Assembly: GCF_004010195.1 (NCBI RefSeq)
Contig: NC_057755.1
Coordinates: forward strand, 3,076,789-3,118,904
Direction: 5' to 3'
From: Chiloscyllium plagiosum
Taxonomy: Eukaryota
Length of the DNA stretch: 42,116 nt
Part shown: piece by piece, positions 7,300 through 41,853 of the stretch
How positions within the stretch are numbered: the first letter of the stretch is position 1
How the letters are laid out: each line of letters opens with the position of its first letter
Position numbers and translations under genes: made by a program
Notes under the pieces: model-generated
What the model was told of the DNA's origin: nothing
The model's database searches: none
The model's input: the letters and a program-made list of their open reading frames with translations, nothing else

Positions 7300-9465
7300 C
7301 CCCCAGCTCTAATGTGTCTTTACCAAACCTCACACCTTCCCCTCACTTAAGCCTGACCTTCATCCCACTTCACTCCCAGATCAACGAATTCCACACGTAT
7401 CATGTCATCGAAATTTTCATCTGCCGCCTCTGCACTGACTTTTTCCATCAGAACTCCGACCCTACCCTCTGGGGACCCCTTGCCTGCCTCCAACATACCC
7501 TATCCACTTGGATGCCCTGTGCCAATCTGTTACCCGCCTTCGATCTCTCTATCTCCAGCTGTCACCGCGACATTGATCACCTCAACAGGTCTGCCCCTCT
7601 CACCCAATCCAACCTCGCACCCTCACAACGCGCAACCCTCTGCTCCAACCCCAACCTCACCATTAAATTGGAGGACAAGGGGGGCGCAGTTGTAGTTTGT
7701 TACACTGACCTTTACACCGCTGAAACTAGGTACCAACCCCTCCTACTGCCCCCTCAATCACGACCTCATCGCCCATCACAAAGCTATCATCTCCCAGACT
7801 ATCCACAACCACATCACCTCAGGGGATCTCCCATCCACAGCCTGCAACCTCATAGTCCGGGAAACTCATATCTCCCATTTCTGCATCTTACTCAAAACTC
7901 AAAACCCTGACTTCCTCCATTGACCCATCGTGCTCCCACCCCACCGAACCTGTCTCTGCATATCTTGACACCATTCCCCCCGCCATGCTCCAGGATCTCC
8001 CCACATACATTTGGGACACCACCCACGTCCTCCACCTCTTCCGTGACTTTGCTTCTCGGTCTCCAATGCCTCATCACCATGGACATGCAGTCTCTGTACA
8101 CCCCTGTCAGCCATGACGAAGGCCTCCAAGCCCTTCACTTCATCCTCTCCCGCTGACCCAACCAGTACTCTTCCAGCGACACACTCATTCAACTGGCTGA
8201 ACTGGTCCTCACCATCAATAATTTCTCCATCGAATCCTCCTACTTCCTTCAGAACAAAGGGGTCACCATGGGCAGCCACTTGGGCCCCAGCTGTGCCTGT
8301 CTCGATGTCAGGTATGTGCAATAGTCCAATTTCTGCAGTTACACCAGCACCATTCCTCACCTTTTTCTCCATTATATCGATAACTATATTAGCACCACTT
8401 CGTGCTCCCATGAGGCGGTTGAGCAATTCACAAACACCTTCCACCCTGACCTCAAGTTCACCTGGACCATCTCGGACACCTCCCTCTCTTTCTTGGTCCT
8501 TTCCACCTCCATTTCTGGTGACTGACTCAACAGGGACATTTACTCCCATCCCACCTACTGTAAAAACGCTATCCCTTACTCCCATTTCGTCCACCTCAGC
8601 CATATCTGCTCCCACAAGGATGAATTCCACTCCAGAACATCTCAGGTGGCCTCCCATTTCAAGGACCGCAACCTCCCCTCCCATGCGGTCAACGATGCCC
8701 TCCAGTGCACCTTCTCCACTTCCCACACCTCCACCCTTGAACCCCACACCTCCAACCACAACAAGGATAGAACCCCCCTGGTCCTTACCTTCCGCCCAAC
8801 CAATCTCCTCCATCATCATCCTCCATCTTTTCTGCCATCTACAATCAGACCCCACCAGCAGAGATATAGTTCCCTCTCTAGCTCTTTCAACAATCTGCAA
8901 AGGCCATTCCCTCTGCAAATACCTCATTTGGTCCACGCCCACCCCCCACCAACCCACCCTCCATTCCCAGCACCTTCCCTTGCCACCACAAGAGATGCAA
9001 AACCTGTGCCCGCGCCACCCTCTTCACCTCCATTTAAGGCCCCAAAGGATCCTTCCACACCAGGGAGAGATTTTCCTGTACATCCAAACACCTCATCTAC
9101 TGAGTCCGTGGCTCTTGATGTGGTCTCCTCTACGTTGGAGTTACAGGACACCAGCTTGCGGAATGTTTCAGAGAACATCTCCAGGACACCTGCACTGAAC
9201 AACCCCACTGCCCTGTGGCCGACCACTTCAACTCCCACTCTTCCCCTACACCCCCAACTCTGCCGAGGACATGCCAGTCCTGGGTCTCTTGAACTGTCCT
9301 ACCTGTCCATCTTTCTTTGCGCTTATCCACTCCACACTCTGCTCTGACCTTTCACCATCACCCCACACTTCCAAGTACCTACCTCATTCCTAGCTATCTA
9401 ACCCCCAGCCCCACCCCCTCCCATTTATCTCTCAGCCCCCTTGCTTCCCCTCCCACACAATTCTA
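7300..9465 (+). mobile_element. Decayed Penelope-like retroelement (RT + GIY-YIG endonuclease)
   Basis: Motifs DKGGAVVV, TMDMQSLYT, KGVTMGSHLGPS, YIDN (YIDD-like), NKDRTPLVLTFRP and GIY-YIG-like FSCTSKHLIY..CGLLYVG, across frameshifts. Confidence 0.88.
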
Positions 9466-20840: not shown

Positions 20841-22166
20841 ATTAAATGTACTGCCCATAGTAATAGCGAAGGTTTAGTTTGACATTGGCAACCATTTGGC
20901 AGATGTGGCAGCAAAAGCAGCCTCTAAAGGGGATCTTATGGTTGTGGGCAGAATGATGAGGCAGCCTACAAATTCTAACAAAAACCAAACTACTTTAGAT
21001 GAATTAATGCCAACCATCCCCAGATGTTGTTAAACTTCAGGGGAACGCCCCTGACACTGAGAAGCTGTTATGGTCAGAGTTGGGCTGTTTGCATGACCCT
21101 GATGCTCAACTCTGGACTATTCCTGAGAGTCAAATTTATATGTCTGATGCTCTTGTTCTATGGGTTATTGAATGTGTTCATTGTGCAACTCATGGTGGCA
21201 CCAGAGCGATCAGGGACTTACTTGTGAACACCTTTTATTGGCTCAGAGGGTTAGTGACTGTTGCTTGATCTGTCTGGAGCAAACCCTGGCAACGGCGTTC
21301 CCTGTGGGCAAGGGTTTATACCCTTTGCCTGGCAGCCCTTTTGAGATACTCCAACTGGACTACATTGAGTTGATTAAATGCCAGTGTTATAAATAGGTTT
21401 TTGTTATTGTTGTCTTTTCTAAGTGGATCGAAGCCTACCCTACTAACACTACTGCTGAGACCGTGGAGAAGATTTTGCTTAAGGAAATTATTCCCTGTTT
21501 TGGTATACCTGCTTGCATTAGCTTGGACAATGGACTGTAATTTATAGGTTATATTAATGAAGAACTCTGTTCCCAGCTTTCTATTCATTGGCACTGCATT
21601 GTGCTTATCGTCCTCGGGCAGCGGCCTTGTTGAATGTTTTTAACTTGACTCTTAAGACTAAACTTGCCAAAATAATGGCTGAGACTGTCCTCTCCTGGGT
21701 TATGCTGCTCTCTTTGGCCTTATTCTAGATGCAATCCATGCCTGTGGGCAAGACACAACTGTCTCCAGCTGAGATTCTCTACGGTTGCCCGGTCCATACT
21801 CCTTGGAATGAATTGGTTCCCTCTTCAGTCCATTTCCACCACCACGTGATCGAAGAAATGATTGTTTCTGTTCTTGCTCCATCTAACGTCAGGCGTGATT
21901 TTCATTTCCATGTTCGTGCGGCCTATGGCGATGTTTCCTCCCTCTCAGTCTCCTCACAGGTGGAGCCTGGTTCGCTTGTGCTTGTCAAGAACTGGACTCG
22001 CAAAGGTCTCCAACCTCGTTGGGTTGGCCCCTTCCAGGTTTTACTTACCACCCCTATGGTGGCCAAAGTGGCTGGTCACTCGGCGTGGGTCCACCTGCAC
22101 CATTGTAAGTTGATTGACCGCACCAATCAAAAGGAGGAAGAGGAGGAGAGAATACTGGAATCCTAG
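20841..22166 (+). mobile_element. pol: Endogenous retrovirus pol remnant (RNase H end + integrase), gamma/epsilon-like
   Basis: IKCTAHS..GNHLADVAAKAA (RNase H); HCATHGG; PFEILQLDYIEL, FSKWIEAYPT and ISLDNG (integrase core); LQPRWVGPFQVLLTTP..WVHLHHCKL (GPY/F). Many stops and frameshifts. Confidence 0.92.
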
Positions 22167-25704: not shown

Positions 25705-26792
25705 ACCAGATTCTGGAGTAGAGTGGTGCTGGAAAAGCACAGCAGTTCAGGCAGCATCCAAGGAGCAGGAAAATTGATGATTTGGGCAAAAGCCCTTCAT
25801 CAAGAATACAGGCAGAGTGCCTGAAGGTGGAGAGATAAATGAGAGGAGGGTGGGGGTGGGGAGAAAGTAGCATAGAGTACAATAGTTGAGTGGGGGAGGG
25901 GATGAAGATGATAGGTCAGAGAGGAGGGTGGAGTGGAATGTCCTTGGCAGAGTGGGAGGGAGAGTTGAAATGTTGGGCCACAGGGCGGTGGGGTTGATTG
26001 ATGCGGGTGTCCCAGAGATGTTCCCTAAAGCGCTCTGCTAGGAAGCGTCCAGTCTCCCCAATGTAGAGGAGACCGCATCGGGAGCAACGGATCCAATAAA
26101 TGATATTGTTGAATGTGCAAGTAAAACTTTGATGGATGTGGAAGGCTCCTTTCGGGCCTTGAGGGAGGAGGTGTGGGAGCAAGTTTTGCAATTCCTGCGG
26201 TGGCAGTGGAAGGTGCCAGGACAGGAGGGTGGATTGTTGGGGGGGTGTGGACCTGACCAGGTAGTCACGGAGGGAACTGTCTTTGTGGAAAGCGGAAAGG
26301 GATGGGGAGGGAAATATATCCCTGGTGGTGGGGTCCGTTTGGAGGTGGCGGATGATTTGGTTTATGTGAAGGTTGGTAGGGTGGAAGGTGACCACCAGGG
26401 GGGTTCTGTCCTTGTTATGGTTGGAGTGGTGGGGTCTGAGGGCGGAGGTGTGGGATGTGGACGAGATGTATTGGAGGGCATCTTTAACCAGATGGGAAGG
26501 GAAATTGCGGTCTCTAAAGGAGGAGGCCATCTGGTGTGTTCTATGTTGGAACTGGTCCTCCTGGGAGCAGATATGGCGAAGGTGGAGGAATTGGGAATAC
26601 GGGATGGCATTTTTGCAGAAGGTAGGGTGGGAAGAGGTGTAATCCAGGTAGCTGTGGGAGTCGATGGGTTTGTAAAAAATGTCGGTGTCAAGTCAGTCGT
26701 CATTAATGGAGATAGGTCTAGGAAGGAGAGGGAGGTGTCGGAGATGGTCCAGGTAAATTTAAGGTCAGGGTGGAATGTGTTGGTGAAGTTGA
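25705..26792 (-). mobile_element. Penelope-like element 3' half (GIY-YIG) with pseudo-LTR and decayed hammerhead
   Basis: ORF 25916-26530 contains FTCTFNNIIYWIRCSRCGLLYIGETGR.LAERFREHL. The hammerhead at about 25770-25805 has mutated core bases. Confidence 0.92.
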
Positions 26793-29090: not shown

Positions 29091-31345
29091 ATCCCCTTAG
29101 ACATTTCCCAAACCCTCCCCCTTCTGGCGTGCAGGAGGCCATTCCACCGCACCCCCCAGGGAACCCATCTACTGCTCCCCAAACTCAACTCAGGGCACTC
29201 GGGGGACCTTCCACTGCCCCTCAAAATCCCCCTCGGGGTGCCCTTCCACTGGCCGACATCACCGCTTCCCTTCAACCGACCCCAACCCTGCCTTGCACAC
29301 CTCTGCACTGGCTCACACCACTTCCACCTCACGCTCCCTTCCACCATCCCCCATCCACCTCCTGTCAAAGTGAGGGGCACCACCCCATTCCACCAGGTCC
29401 ATCCGACCCCCACACTCCATACAGTCCATCTTGATGTGAGTGTCTGATCATGTTTTCTTTGAGGGGGGGGGGAGAGCAGCCACAAGTTGTGGTCCATATA
29501 GACGGCACCAATGACATAGGTAGGAAGAGAGTTGGGGATCTAAGGCAAAACTTCAGGGAGCTAGGGTGGAAGTTTAGAGCGAGAACAAACAGAGTTGTTA
29601 TCTCTGGTTTGTTGCCTGTGCCACATGCTAGTGAAGTGAGGAACAGGGAGAGAGCAGAGTTGAACACATGGCTGCAGGGATGGTGCAGGAGGCAGGGTTT
29701 TGGATTCTTGGATAATTGGGTCTCTTTCTGGGGAAGGTGGGACCTCCACAAACAGGATGGTCTTCGCCCGAACCAGAGGGGTACCAATATCCTGGGGATG
29801 GGAGGAAATTTGCTAATGCTCTTTGGGAGGGTTTAAACTAATGCAGCAGGGGGGTGGGAACCTGAATTGTAGTTCCAGTGCACGGGGGGGTTGAGGATAG
29901 TGAGGTCAGGGATAGGTTTACAAAGTCGTAAAAGGGCACTGACAATCAGGATGTTGGTTTGAAATGTGTGTACTTCAACGCCAGGAGCATCCAGAGTAAG
30001 GTGGGTGAACTTGCAGCATGGGACTTCGATGTTGTGGCCATTTCAGAGACATGGCTAGAGGAGGGACAGGAATGGTTGTTGCAGGTTCCAGGATTTAGAT
30101 GTTTCAGCAAGAACAGAGAAGATGGTAACAGAGGGAGGGGTGTGGCATTGTTAATCAAGGGTAGTGTTACAGCAGCTGAGATAACGTTTGAGGACTCATC
30201 CACTCAGGTAGTTTGGGCTGAGGTTAGAAACAGGAAAGGAGAGGTCACCCTGTTGGGAGTTTTCTACAGGCCTCTGAATAGTTCCAGGGATGTAGAGGAA
30301 AGGATAGAAAAGATGGTTCTCGATAAGAGTGAGAATAACAGGGAAGTTGTTACGGGGGACTGTATCTTCCCCAATATTGACTGGCAATACTATAGTTCAA
30401 GTAGTTTAGATGGGTCAGTTTTTCTTCAATATATGCAGGAGGGTTTTTTTGACACAGGAGGAAGACAGGCCAACAAGGGGCCCTGCCATATTGGATTTGG
30501 TACAGGGTAATGAACCCGGCCAGGTATTAGATTTGAAGGTAGGTGAGCACTTTGGTAATAGTGACCATAATTCAGTTATATTTACAATAGTAATGGGAAG
30601 AGATAGGTATATACCGCAGGGAAAGAGGTATAACTGGGTAAAAGACAATTATGTGTGATTAGGCAAGATTTAGGATGCATAAGATGGGGAAGGAAACTGC
30701 AGGAGATGGACACTTGAAATGTGGAGTTTATTCAAGGAATAGCTACTGCAGGTCCTTGATACGTATATGCCTATCCAGCAGAGAGGTAGTTGTCGAGAGA
30801 AGGAGGCTTGGTTTTTCTAAAGAAGTTGAAGCTCTTGTCAAGAGGAAGAGGAAGGCTTTTGTGAAGATGAGATGTGAAAGCTCAGTTTGGGGGCTTGAGA
30901 GTTATAGGTTAGCCAGGAAAAGGTAAAGAGAGCCAAGAAGAGCCAGGAGGAGACATGAGAAGTTGTTGGCAGATAGGATCAAGGAAAATCCTAAGGACTT
31001 CTATAGGTATATCAGAAATAAAAGAATGACCAGAGTAAGATTAGGGCCAACAAAAGATAGTAGTGGGAAGTTGTGTGTGGAATCTGAGGACATAGGGGAA
31101 GCACTGAGTGAATACTTTTCATCAATATTTACATTGGAAAAGGGTAGTGTTCGTGAAAATATGGAGATACAGGCTACAAGACAAACACATAACCTCAACA
31201 CCAAGGAGAGGGAAGCACTAAAATCACTAAGAAACGATAAGAACATAATCATCCTACCAGCAGACAAAGGCAGAATGACGGTCATCCTGGACAAAGCAGA
31301 GTACATCCAAAAAGCACAACAACTACTTGCAGATAGCAACACCTA

Positions 31346-32063
31346 NNNNNNNNNNNNNNNNNNNNNNNNNNNNNNNNNNNNNNNNNNNNNNNNNNNNNNN
31401 NNNNNNNNNNNNNNNNNNNNNNNNNNNNNNNNNNNNNNNNNNNNNNNNNNNNNNNNNNNNNNNNNNNNNNNNNNNNNNNNNNNNNNNNNNNNNNNNNNNN
31501 NNNNNNNNNNNNNNNNNNNNNNNNNNNNNNNNNNNNNNNNNNNNNNNNNNNNNNNNNNNNNNNNNNNNNNNNNNNNNNNNNNNNNNNNNNNNNNNNNNNN
31601 NNNNNNNNNNNNNNNNNNNNNNNNNNNNNNNNNNNNNNNNNNNNNNNNNNNNNNNNNNNNNNNNNNNNNNNNNNNNNNNNNNNNNNNNNNNNNNNNNNNN
31701 NNNNNNNNNNNNNNNNNNNNNNNNNNNNNNNNNNNNNNNNNNNNNNNNNNNNNNNNNNNNNNNNNNNNNNNNNNNNNNNNNNNNNNNNNNNNNNNNNNNN
31801 NNNNNNNNNNNNNNNNNNNNNNNNNNNNNNNNNNNNNNNNNNNNNNNNNNNNNNNNNNNNNNNNNNNNNNNNNNNNNNNNNNNNNNNNNNNNNNNNNNNN
31901 NNNNNNNNNNNNNNNNNNNNNNNNNNNNNNNNNNNNNNNNNNNNNNNNNNNNNNNNNNNNNNNNNNNNNNNNNNNNNNNNNNNNNNNNNNNNNNNNNNNN
32001 NNNNNNNNNNNNNNNNNNNNNNNNNNNNNNNNNNNNNNNNNNNNNNNNNNNNNNNNNNNNNNN
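31346..32063. other. Assembly gap (718 N)
   Basis: Seen directly. Confidence 1.
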
Positions 32064-32576
32064 AGGACGTTGAACCCATCAACAAAGACGGCATACTTAA
32101 ACTACTGGACTTGTGCCCCAAAACCAACAGCCACACTCAGGCAACACTCACCAGAACGAAGGACCCGATACCCAGCATGAGCAAAACTAATGTACTGTAC
32201 AAAATCCCATGCAAGGACTGCACAAAACACTATATAGGACAAACAGGAAGACAGCTAACGATCCGCATCCACGAACATCAACTAGCCACGAAACGACACG
32301 ACCAGCTATCCCTAGTAGCCACACACGTAGACGACAAGCAACATGAATTTGACTGGGACAACATTACCATTACAGGGCAAGCGAAACAAATAACAGCCAG
32401 GGAATTCCTAGAAGCATTGCACTCATCCACAAACTCCATCAACAAACACATAGACCTAGGCCCAATATACCGGCCACTACAGCGGACAGCTGAAACTGAC
32501 AACCGGAAGTGGCAGGGACAGGCTACTATAAATGCCGGAGGAAACACCACAGAAGCGCTTCACAGGAGGCTCCCAA

Positions 32577-32616
32577 GCACTGAGGATGTCACCTAGACAG
32601 GGGACGAAACGTTTGC
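32577..32616 (+). ncRNA. Minimal type I hammerhead ribozyme
   Basis: gca-CTGAGGA-t-GTCaCCT-agac-AGGgGAC-GAAA-cg-TT-tgc. Core intact, palindromic ACGT stem III, GUU triplet. Confidence 0.75.
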
Positions 32617-34847: not shown

Positions 34848-36085
34848 AGCAGCTGAGGGAGTGCTGTGCTGTCGGAGGGTCAGTGCTTAGGGAGCACCGC
34901 ACTGTCAAAGGGTCAATACTGATGGAGTGTCGCACTGTCAGAGGGTCGGTACTGAGGGAGTGCCACACTGTCAGAGGGTCGGTACTGATGGTGTGTCGCA
35001 CTGTCAGAAGGTCGGTACTGAGGGAGTGCCACACTATCGGTGAGTCAGTACTGAGGGAGTGCTGCATTTCGGAGGGTAGGTACTGTGGGAATGCCCCACT
35101 GTCGGAGGGTCTTACAAAGCGAGCACCGCACTCTCGGAGGGACAGTACTGAGGGGGCACTGCACTGTCTAAGGGTCAGTACTGAGGGACTGCTGCACTGT
35201 CAGGTCAGTGCTGAGGGAGCGCCGCATTGTCAGAGGGTCAGTACTGAGGGAGCGCCGCACTGTCAGAGGGTCAGTACTGAGGGAGCGCTGCACTGAGCGC
35301 CGCATTGTCAGAGGGTCAGTGCTGAGGGAGCGCAGCACTGTCAGAGGGACAGTACTGAGGGGGCACTGCACTGTCTAAGGGTCAGTACTGAGAGACTGCT
35401 GCACTGTCAGGTCAGTGCTGAGGGAGCGCCGCATTGTCAGAGGGCCAGTGCTGAGGGAGCGCCGCATTGTCAGAGGGTCAGTGCTGAGGGAGCGCAGCAC
35501 TGTCTGAGGGTCAGTACTGAGGGAGCGCCGCACTATCAGAGGGTCAGTACTGAGGGAGCGCCGCACTGTCAGAGGGTCAGTACTGAGGGACTGCCGCACT
35601 GTCAGAGGGTCAGTGCTGAGGGACGGCCACACTGTCAGAGGGTCAGTGCTGAGGGAACATTGCACTGTCAGAGAGTCAGTGCTGAGGGAGCGCCGCACTG
35701 TAGGAGGGTCAGTGCTGAGGGAGCACCACACTGTCAGAGGGTCAGTGCTGAGTGAGCGCCGCACTGTTTAAGGGTCAGTGATGAGAAAGTGCTGCACTGT
35801 CAGAGGGTCAGTACTGAGGGAGCGTTGCACTATCATAGGGTCAGTGCTGAGGGAACGCCGCACTGTCGGAGGGTCGGTGCTGAGGGAGTGCTGCACTATC
35901 AGAGGGTCAGTGCTGAGGGAGCGCCACACTGTCAGAGGATCAGTGCTGAGGAAGCACCGCACTGTCAGAGGGTCAGTGCTGAGGGAGCGCCGCATTCTCG
36001 GAGGGTCAGTGCTGAGGGAGCGCCGCACTGTCGGAGGGTCAGTGCTGAAGGAGCACCGCACTGTCGGAGGGTCAGGACTGAGGCA
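34848..36085. repeat. 33-bp tandem satellite, consensus about CAGTRCTGAGGGAGCGCCGCACTGTCAGAGGGT, roughly 37 copies
   Basis: Direct tandem periodicity; produces the 11-residue STDPLTVRRSL pseudo-ORFs. Confidence 0.97.
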
Positions 36086-38929: not shown

Positions 38930-39388
38930 GCTTTCTTCACTCGGTGTTAACATAGCCATCGTTACAGTTACTGCACCCCAATTTTTAAGCCCAGCAATAT
39001 AATCAAATCCCTACCTAATAGATTACTTCCAATGTCAGGAATATATAGTAATTGTCCTATCACTTCCTCATCATTTCTTCTAATTAGGGTTGGTTCAAAA
39101 ATAGGCACCAAGAATTCTTCGCCTTTTACTCCAGAAACCTTAAGATACTCCTTAGTCAATTTAACGCCGCTAGGTCTAAAACTTAGGGATGACCGTGCCG
39201 CTCCCGTGTCCACCAAAAATACTGTCTCCTCCCCTTCAGGTCCCACCTTTAAATTTATCAAAGGTTCCCGGTGGGTCTCAGGAGGAAGGAACCCCTGACT
39301 CCCCTAATCTTCATCTAAGGTCATGAGGGAAACGGCTTCCTTTTCTCGTGCTAATTCCGGGCATTCCCGTTTAAAATGCCCCACTTTC
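38930..39388 (-). mobile_element. gag-pro: Second endogenous retrovirus fragment: gag C-terminus, TAG, protease
   Basis: KVGHFKRECPELAREKEAVSLMTLDED*GSQGFLPPETHREPLINLKVGPEGEETVFLVDTGAARSSL..NLLGRDL in one frame. Half zinc knuckle, DTG active site and GRD motif. Confidence 0.92.
39242..39306 (-). promoter_or_regulatory. Predicted stop-codon readthrough signal (TAG + 8-nt spacer + H-type pseudoknot)
   Basis: UAG-GGGAGUCA-GGGGUUCC-[12 nt]-CCCACC-G-GGAACCUU-[13 nt]-GGUGGG. Confidence 0.75.
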
Positions 39389-39389
39389 C

Positions 39390-39692
39390 GTTAGCACTGC
39401 TGTCTCACAGCGCCAGAGATCCGGGTTCAATTCCTGCCTCGGGCAACTGTCTGTGTGGAGTTTGCACATTCTCCCTGTGTCTGCGTGGGTTTTCTCCGGG
39501 TGCTCCGGTTTCCTCCCACAGCCCAAAAATGTGCAGGTCAGGTGAATTGGCCATGCTAAATTGCCCGTAGTGTTAGGTGAAGGGGTAAATGTAGGGGAAT
39601 GGGACTGGGTGGGTTACTTTTCGGAGGGTCGGTGTGGACTTGTTGGGGCCGAAGCGCCTGTTTCCACATTGTAAGTAATCTAATCTAATCTA
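39390..39692 (+). mobile_element. HE1-like SINE, well preserved
   Basis: B box GGTTCAATTCC, conserved body and (TAATC)n tail. Confidence 0.92.
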
Positions 39693-39829: not shown

Positions 39830-40135
39830 GGGGTGGCACAGTGGTTAGCACTCACAGCACCAGGGACCAGGGTTCGATTCCAGCCTCGGGTGACTGTCTG
39901 TGTGAAGTTTGCACATTCTCCCCGTGTCTGCGTGGGTTTCCTCTGGGTGCTTCGGCATCCTCCCATAGTCCAAAGATGTGCGGGTTAGGTGAACCGGCCA
40001 TGCTAAATTGCCCATAGTGCTAGATACATTAGTCAGAGGGAAATGGGTCTGGGTGAGTTACTCTTCGGAGGGCCAGTGTGGACTTGTTGGGCCGAAGGGC
40101 CTGTTTCCACACTCTAGGGAATCTGAAAAAAAAAG
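39830..40135 (+). mobile_element. HE1-like SINE
   Basis: A box TGGCACAGTGG, B box GGTTCGATTCC, conserved body and A tail. Confidence 0.92.
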
Positions 40136-40800: not shown

Positions 40801-40881
40801 GGAACGGCTACGGTCTTACGTCCCTCCCAAGCAAACAATCCACTCCCCCCCCACCTCCGCCTGGAGGGGAACGAGGGTCCC

Positions 40882-41208
40882 GGGGATGGAGGGTAACACC
40901 CTCCTCCTGTAGGTGGGGGTGTGTGGTAGTGAGGGTTTCGGGGATGGCGCGTAACCCTCTCCCCCTGGGAGGGGGGGGGGGTAGTAGCGAGGGTCCTGGG
41001 GATGGAGGGTAACTCCCTCCCCCTGGGGGGGTGGTAGTGAGGGTACTGCGGATGGAGGGTAACCCCTCCCCCTGGGGGGGTGGTAGTGAGGGTACTGGGG
41101 ATGGAGGGTAACCCCCTCCCCCTGGGGGGCGTGGTAGTGAGGGTCCCAAGGAAGGAGGGTAACCTGCTCCCCCTGGGGAGCAGGTACTGCTGATCCTGGG
41201 GATGGAGG
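40882..41208. repeat. G-rich minisatellite, unit about 50 bp, about 6 copies
   Basis: GGGATGGAGGGTAACCCCCTCCCCCTGGGGGGGTGGTAGTGAGGGTACT recurs at about 40882, 40941, 40998, 41048, 41097 and 41148. Confidence 0.9.
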
Positions 41209-41483: not shown

Positions 41484-41853
41484 GTCACCATCCCTAACCA
41501 CTGACGGTAATCACAAACCCAGTCACCATCCCTAACCCCTGACAGTAATCACAAACCCAGTCACCATCCCTAACCACTGACGGTAATCACAAATCCGGTC
41601 CCCATCCCTAACCACTGACGGTAATCACAAATCCGGTCACCATCCCTAACCACTGACAGTAATCACAAACCTGGTCACCATCCCTAACCACTGACTGGTC
41701 ACCATCCCTATCCCCTGACAATAATCACAAACCCGGTCACCATCCCTAACCACTGACAGTAATCACAAACCCGGTCACCATGCCTAACCCCTGACGGTAA
41801 TCACAAATCTGGTCACCATCCCTAACCCCTGACGGTAATCACAGTCCTGGTCA
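41484..41853. repeat. 38-bp minisatellite containing CCCTAA, about 10 copies
   Basis: GTCACCATCCCTAACCACTGACGGTAATCACAAACCCG starts at 41484, 41522, 41560 and onward; one shortened unit near 41674-41697. Confidence 0.95.

Follow-up and report, generated by a model that had tools for sequence, protein, structure and literature searches.

The gag-pro junction of an ERV fragment found in the window, i.e., the whole 42,116-nucleotide stretch of DNA analysed here, is probably a variant of the MLV readthrough pseudoknot in which loop 1 is long, belonging to a gamma-like ERV family spread in sharks and preserved here in a dead fragment. Homology of this junction to the MLV gag-pro readthrough signal is supported by comparison at the sequence level. 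The features considered, in window coordinates, are as follows.

38931..39389, minus strand: ERV fragment (459 bp) comprising the end of the gag NC, the stop codon, the protease and a few codons beyond
39307..39387, minus strand: gag 3' end, encoding the second half of a CCHC zinc knuckle and an acidic tail
39304..39306, minus strand: in-frame UAG stop codon of gag
38971..39303, minus strand: retroviral aspartyl protease frame, with the DTG at 39202-39210
39296..39303, minus strand: 8-nt spacer, in which G1, G2, G5, U6, C7 and A8 are kept
39287..39295, minus strand: 5' arm of stem 1, 9 nt
39276..39286, minus strand: loop 1, 11 nt, pyrimidine-rich and variable among relatives
39270..39275, minus strand: 5' arm of the putative stem 2, 6 nt
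39261..39269, minus strand: 3' arm of stem 1, 9 nt, containing both listed variable sites (39262 and 39269)
39248..39260, minus strand: last loop, 13 nt, with a GAUAA motif matching MoMLV G36-A40
39242..39247, minus strand: 3' arm of the putative stem 2, 6 nt
39245..39265, minus strand: competing 8-bp hairpin, incompatible with either stem in nested folds of the window copy
39390..39690, plus strand: 5'-truncated SINE-like repeat adjoining the gag end of the fragment

When 11 relative proteins and two gammaretroviral loci served as queries in tblastn searches, matches to the fragment were confined to positions 38971-39405, and no further part of gag, RT or an LTR was detected anywhere in the window. 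Because the copy is without upstream gag and RT, no gene product is possible at this locus; the copy is dead and unable to express Gag-Pol. The alignment of other family copies begins at 38931, with the host flank below this point being covered in one of four runs, while at the other end lies the SINE-like repeat, which matches copies at 1239-1442 and 39837-40023 at 73-88% and which is a candidate shark HE1-type SINE. The protease frame was recognized by Pfam as RVP (7.9e-6) and matched the XMRV protease (2.2e-6); it closes near 38973, where 10 bases present in copies from three other runs are missing and the reading frame is shifted. The gag 3' end, holding half of the motif, scored below the cut-off for zf-CCHC (E 0.0053) and showed a 57% match to P0016. 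The UAG lies in frame, preceded by the end of a CCHC knuckle and followed by the DTG of a retroviral protease.

Other repeated and mobile sequences are also found in the window. A broken retroviral integrase fragment (21238-22109, plus strand; 35-42% identical to gammaretroviral integrase and 27-38% to P0077) has the reverse orientation and is separated by 17 kb from the readthrough junction; it is therefore assigned to a separate provirus. Pieces of a Penelope-like GIY-YIG retroelement, best matched in Chiloscyllium punctatum (65%) and then in rays, are present at 25916-26692 (minus strand), 7899-9347 and 32080-32596, and a LINE-type endonuclease fragment (Exo_endo_phos) at 29932-30510 (plus strand). 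A 33-bp minisatellite of about 37 units, readable as a frame of 11-residue repeats, spans 34852-36083; two more tandem arrays are seen at 40872-41208 (50-58 bp units) and 41484-41853 (38 bp units), with the tRNA-Pro called by ARAGORN at 40936-41029, inside the former array, probably being spurious. The window also contains an assembly gap (a run of N) at about 31345-32075.

Inspection of the minus strand confirmed, letter for letter, the elements drawn in the earlier note on this DNA, namely, the UAG, the 8-nt spacer, the stem arms and loops of 12, 1 and 13 nt, with the arms of stem 1 lying at 39295-39288 and 39268-39261, the first loop at 39287-39276 and the single nucleotide at 39269. A search for perfect-helix H-type knots refined this drawing by pairing 39287 (U) with 39269 (G), such that stem 1 becomes 9 bp long, the loops measure 11, 0 and 13 nt and the two stems are stacked. 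In addition, spacer bases 5-8 are able to pair with the four bases that open the last loop (39257-39260), so that stem 1 and these pairs would form a continuous 13-bp helix.

Comparison with MoMLV was then possible base by base. Of the positions described as functionally important in that virus (spacer G1, G2, G5, U6, C7 and A8; loop G35, G36, U38, A39 and A40; PMC13517186), the window keeps all six in the spacer and four of the five in the loop, with U occupying the position of G35, and the spacer is identical to that of the gammaretrovirus locus L002. In MoMLV, the spacer GUC pairs with the loop GAU across an AG bulge (PMC13517186); in the window, this bulge gives way to two U residues, paired with G9 and A8. 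The parallel between the peptide and that of MLV, as drawn in the earlier note, likewise holds, both against the MLV-type locus L009 and against the table in PMC13517186. The best Rfam match over 39241-39306 was GP_knot1 (RF01073), at 19.5 bits (E 0.055-0.37), as compared to a gathering threshold of 67.7 bits; controls scored 73-85 bits, L066 38.1 bits and L068 20.3 bits. As such, the junction is MLV-like yet falls outside GP_knot1 and lacks the short loop 1 of that type, in keeping with the suggestion that it would be a new natural variant, with a presumed function in readthrough.

When the 75 nt that follow the stop were shuffled with dinucleotides preserved, the stacking energy of the perfect-helix H-type knot at +9 (-31.0 kcal/mol) was equalled in four of 1500 cases, and in eight of 1500 when starts from +8 to +10 were allowed, using a scanner that accepts no bulges and that failed to detect MoMLV itself at +9. 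When the peptide was held fixed and codons were taken as equally likely, all 14 listed pairs held with a probability of 0.0012, a value that overstates significance as the pairs were picked after the sequence was seen; the values were 0.037 for stem 1 alone and 0.042 for stem 2 alone. These numbers bear on the idea that the helices arise as a by-product, from the G/C-rich codons that encode the conserved protease N-terminus, with the stop context alone being of importance, or nothing at all. Indeed, the paired bases mostly occupy first or second codon positions, the Rfam score is far under the cut-off, nested folding gave a z of -1.26 (24 of 200 shuffles being equally good) and potential knots are common in viral genomes, with 50 in SRV-1 (PMC3835772). 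Against a by-product stand the low peptide-fixed probabilities of stem 1 and of both stems together, the start at +9, exactly as in MoMLV, the gene calls P0111, P0159 and P0171, which read VRG here in another frame and so fix the same wobble bases, and the manner in which double changes in the relative L068 tie an amino-acid change to a silent change on the other arm. On balance, a by-product is considered improbable.

The distantly related ERV L068, in which Pfam recognizes gag p30, protease and RT and whose protease is 42% identical to that of the window, retains 12 of the 13 stem-1 pairs, with pair probabilities of 0.74-1.0. Double changes have turned one U-A pair into C-G and one C-G pair into U-A, and a further pair has gone from G-U to G-C; the double changes are silent on one arm and alter an amino acid on the other. 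In run X9, a loose end carries the 5' arm change of L068, with the partner position out of view. In a diverged contig of run X15, with a loose end at 39274, three stem-1 5' positions differ, two of which would be mismatched if the unseen 3' arm is unchanged. Across the whole ten-row alignment, eight rows of which are gapped in stem 1, covariation was not above that in shuffles (66-135 of 500).

Family copies provided a further view of the junction. Whole or part of the stretch was found in 20 listed runs, from 10 studies and four organisms, with no RNA dataset listed among them. In four runs, 278, 43, 240 and 66 contigs aligned, with the host flank being covered by organism A only, from which it follows that this is a multi-copy family common to several species. 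In the variant tally, which lists 40 of 195 rows in all, the element holds two of the 40, a number not significant alone (binomial 0.064), and both change a stem-1 G-U into a Watson-Crick pair. The variant at 39262 appears in 52, 10, 48 and 13 contigs of the four runs and that at 39269 in 20, 9, 22 and 4. Most contigs covering 39262 differ there from the window copy, which is therefore a weakened one. A peak of summed contig depth over 39237-39304, seen in all four runs, was discounted, as contig depth cannot rank gene parts. With 9 bp beginning at G9, where MLV-type signals have 8-9 bp, together with covariation in L068 and variants that preserve pairing, stem 1 is supported.

Site 39262 also bears on how the junction folds. 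In nested folding, both stems were given a probability of about 0 and two other hairpins formed, at -26.8 kcal/mol; the stem-1 hairpin plus stem-2 stacking is more stable than this nested minimum by 2.5 kcal/mol when no penalty for the knot is charged, a crude margin that reaches 8.4-12.4 kcal/mol in five gammaretroviral loci. It was thus considered whether the working structure is instead a nested one, either the hairpin at 39245-39265 or a single long hairpin in which loop 1 and the stem-2 region pair downstream. While the minimum-energy nested folds of the window copy are of this kind, the common variant at 39262 disrupts one pair of the competing hairpin and firms stem 1, and the downstream partner region differs among subfamilies and in L068, such that a nested working structure appears very improbable; the contig data, which are partial, also point to a lack of these hairpins in most natural copies. 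With the commoner base at 39262, favourable to stem 1 and unfavourable to the rival hairpin, typical family copies would be expected, by reasoning alone, to fold the knot better than does the window copy.

Stem 2 is weaker than stem 1, and its formation in RNA, and hence that of the pseudoknot, is predicted from complementarity. It comprises six complementary pairs and calls for three fixed wobble choices. No compensatory change in stem 2 was found in the family contigs, L068 or the alignment examined, such that covariation among related ERVs, a check named in the earlier note, was seen in stem 1 and not in stem 2. Neither stem-2 arm carries a variant among the 40 rows listed from the four organisms. 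Three diverged contigs or contig groups cease aligning at 39240-39243, i.e., at the end of stem 2, two further diverged contigs keep the stem-2 3' arm next to changed neighbours, and a 13-base deletion over part of that arm is present in one contig in each of two runs.

At the level of protein, 61 of 128 protease representatives cover the motif, and the following counts from this set are uncorrected for kinship. H or Y is found two residues before EP in 31 of the 61. In these 31, S, T, P or A precedes the H/Y in 25 and Q, R, P, L or H follows it in 22, as compared to 15 and 6, respectively, of the other 30; the V of xVG is present in 26 of the 31 and in 14 of the 30 (Fisher 0.003). The residues of this signature are those whose codons can supply stem 2. 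Still, the signature could reflect protein constraint.

Given this difference between the stems, the main competing explanation is that readthrough is driven by the spacer context and a long stem-loop, namely, stem 1 of 9-13 bp with a variable top, with stem 2 being incidental or optional. Every double change seen falls in stem 1, L068 presents an extended hairpin of probability near 1 alongside a weak stem 2, and stem-2 changes in MoMLV do not always abolish readthrough, with other viruses relying on extended stem-loops (PMC13517186). This explanation is nonetheless held to be rather unlikely: stem 2 is perfect, adjoins stem 1 as in MoMLV and has its three wobbles fixed (0.042), no stem-2 variant is listed in the four organisms, the peptide signature extends across the clade, and in MuLV, synonymous disruption of stem 2 lowers readthrough 27-65-fold (PMC4178896). 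The pseudoknot remains the preferred reading.

Relatives sharing the junction were sought by several routes. A protein-guided scan of viral contigs returned gammaretroviruses only, and the same type of scan of metagenome contigs yielded no close relative among 180 candidates; a scan of genome contigs gave one weak bacterial match, which was disregarded. A narrow DNA pattern of the junction found no match, while wider DNA patterns detected nine viral loci and 54 metagenome loci. The latter included 42 gamma types with short linkers and two loci with longer linkers, L066 and L068; another 10 were dropped as non-retroviral chance matches. Several of the loci (L022, L031, L052 and others) are rodent-type gamma ERVs in which stem 1 and the loop motif are kept and the stem-2 3' arm is without its G run.

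In L068, positions 716-793 correspond to a bird-type junction whose stem 1 reaches 12 bp when extended by the spacer. Its loop folds into an upper hairpin, and a possible stem 2 of 4+4 bp is interrupted, with four contiguous pairs followed by an A-A mismatch and four further pairs; the two stems are 9 nt apart. This junction is a candidate intermediate between a stem-loop and a pseudoknot. L066 (1275-1342, minus strand), in turn, is a mammalian-type class I junction compatible with a knot whose loop 1 measures 10 nt, such that a long loop 1 may not be unique to the shark family.

As judged by its protease, the fragment is gamma-like class I and resembles HERV-IP and HERV-ADP. The closest proteases are 55-62% identical, as compared to 37-42% for true gammaretroviral proteases. 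One of these, P0001 (59%), is of a type that matches by eye the HERV-ADP protease published in supplement 3 of PMC4724089, and P0074 similarly matches by eye the HERV-IP protease of that supplement; the latter protease has the same SHQ-EPLINL-xVGP junction pattern as does the window. The named bird relatives are from Passer and Hirundo. In a protease tree of 36 rows and 112 columns, holding no epsilonretroviral reference and with named references matched by eye, the window groups with HERV-IP/HERV-ADP-like and bird ERVs, while six gammaretroviral rows and L066/P0022 are split off by a 100/100 branch; no sister group of the window was resolved in this tree. None of the eight viral scans retrieved an epsilonretroviral reference. 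P0047, the top-scoring representative, was rejected as a spurious match, being a repetitive Schistosoma protein aligned over 17 short stretches.

The label 'fish-lineage ERV' used earlier is thus misleading, since the protease is nearest to a lineage described from amniotes, while the host, as judged by the best match of the GIY-YIG retroelement, is probably a shark. For the same reason, the depth of conservation proposed in the earlier note applies across virus lineages and has no bearing on an ancient fish origin. In a literature search that took in few subscription papers, no account was found of a gamma-like shark ERV, nor of any structure serving readthrough in shark ERVs or in those of HERV-IP/ADP-like type. 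An ERV of the lemon shark is reportedly HERV-I-related. This element is likewise a shark ERV near human ERVs, its closeness to a human ERV having been credited to cross-species transmission (PMC4422223). HERV-IP and HERV-ADP themselves are grouped as HERVIPADP, a supergroup described as similar to chicken ChiRV1 (PMC4724089) and from which the present family differs in having a probable shark, not an amniote, as host. The finding also marks a gamma-like ERV family in sharks, whereas surveys call the gamma clade amniote-only (PMC6001957).

By homology to MuLV, in which 5-10% of ribosomes read through the stop (PMC4178896), the junction may be envisaged to have worked in an active virus as follows. 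Once the UAG occupies the A site, the ribosome would open the four spacer pairs and would then meet, at the mRNA entry, the 9-bp stem 1 stacked on the 6-bp stem 2, with the GAUAA loop exposed. Termination would be slowed as in MoMLV, and a near-cognate tRNA would win in a minority of ribosomes, giving rise to Gag-Pro-Pol. Both this mechanism and any rate of readthrough are drawn from the MuLV example.

It can be proposed, albeit tentatively and with somewhat less than even confidence, that the HERV-IP/ADP-like lineage, in sharks as in birds and mammals, has a readthrough pseudoknot class of its own, defined by a stem 1 that is locked by the spacer and has no bulge, by a loop 1 that is long and variable, and by the lack of the A17 triple. 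If so, the protonation switch of MoMLV would count as a local elaboration, the core common to retroviral readthrough being made up of spacer, stem 1 and GAUAA loop. At the same time, the junction, within a dead fragment, remains homologous to a textbook signal and is of a kind to be expected; its use would lie in telling, by natural comparison, which elements of the MoMLV signal are indispensable.

Among known systems, the MoMLV signal is one of the closest to the junction. As in that virus, a UAG follows the NC knuckle, the spacer is 8 nt long, a stem 1 of 8-9 bp starts at G9 (+9), a stem 2 of 6-7 bp would be stacked directly upon it, GAUAA is present in the last loop and the spacer can pair with that loop, in the window without the AG bulge and as 13 continuous pairs. 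Unlike in MoMLV, GaLV, FeLV and BaEV, loop 1 is of 11 nt (12 as first drawn) rather than 1-2 nt, bearing out the earlier description of a much longer loop 1, and the last loop is of 13 nt, not 17-19 nt, with the stem-2 3' arm lying 4 nt earlier in the protease frame than in MoMLV; the lengths of 1-2 and 17-19 nt are those given for five gammaretroviral knots (PMC3835772). With a loop 1 of 11 nt, the base triple made by the single adenine of MoMLV (A17) would be absent or replaced. An in-frame gag-pro stop in an aquatic host is also found in WDSV, SnRV, SSSV and ZFERV, with differing stop contexts; a genome-wide scan, with a default loop 1 of <=10 nt, found no knot after the stop of WDSV or SnRV (PMC3835772), and a 2026 review regards readthrough elements as established for gammaretroviruses only and as unknown for fish retroviruses (PMC13517186). 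That same review describes the roles of the A17 triple and of the spacer-loop pairing as disputed (PMC13517186). A natural family with the spacer, loop motif and stem 1 retained, without the one-base loop and with bulge-free spacer-loop pairing offers a comparison for both of these MoMLV roles.
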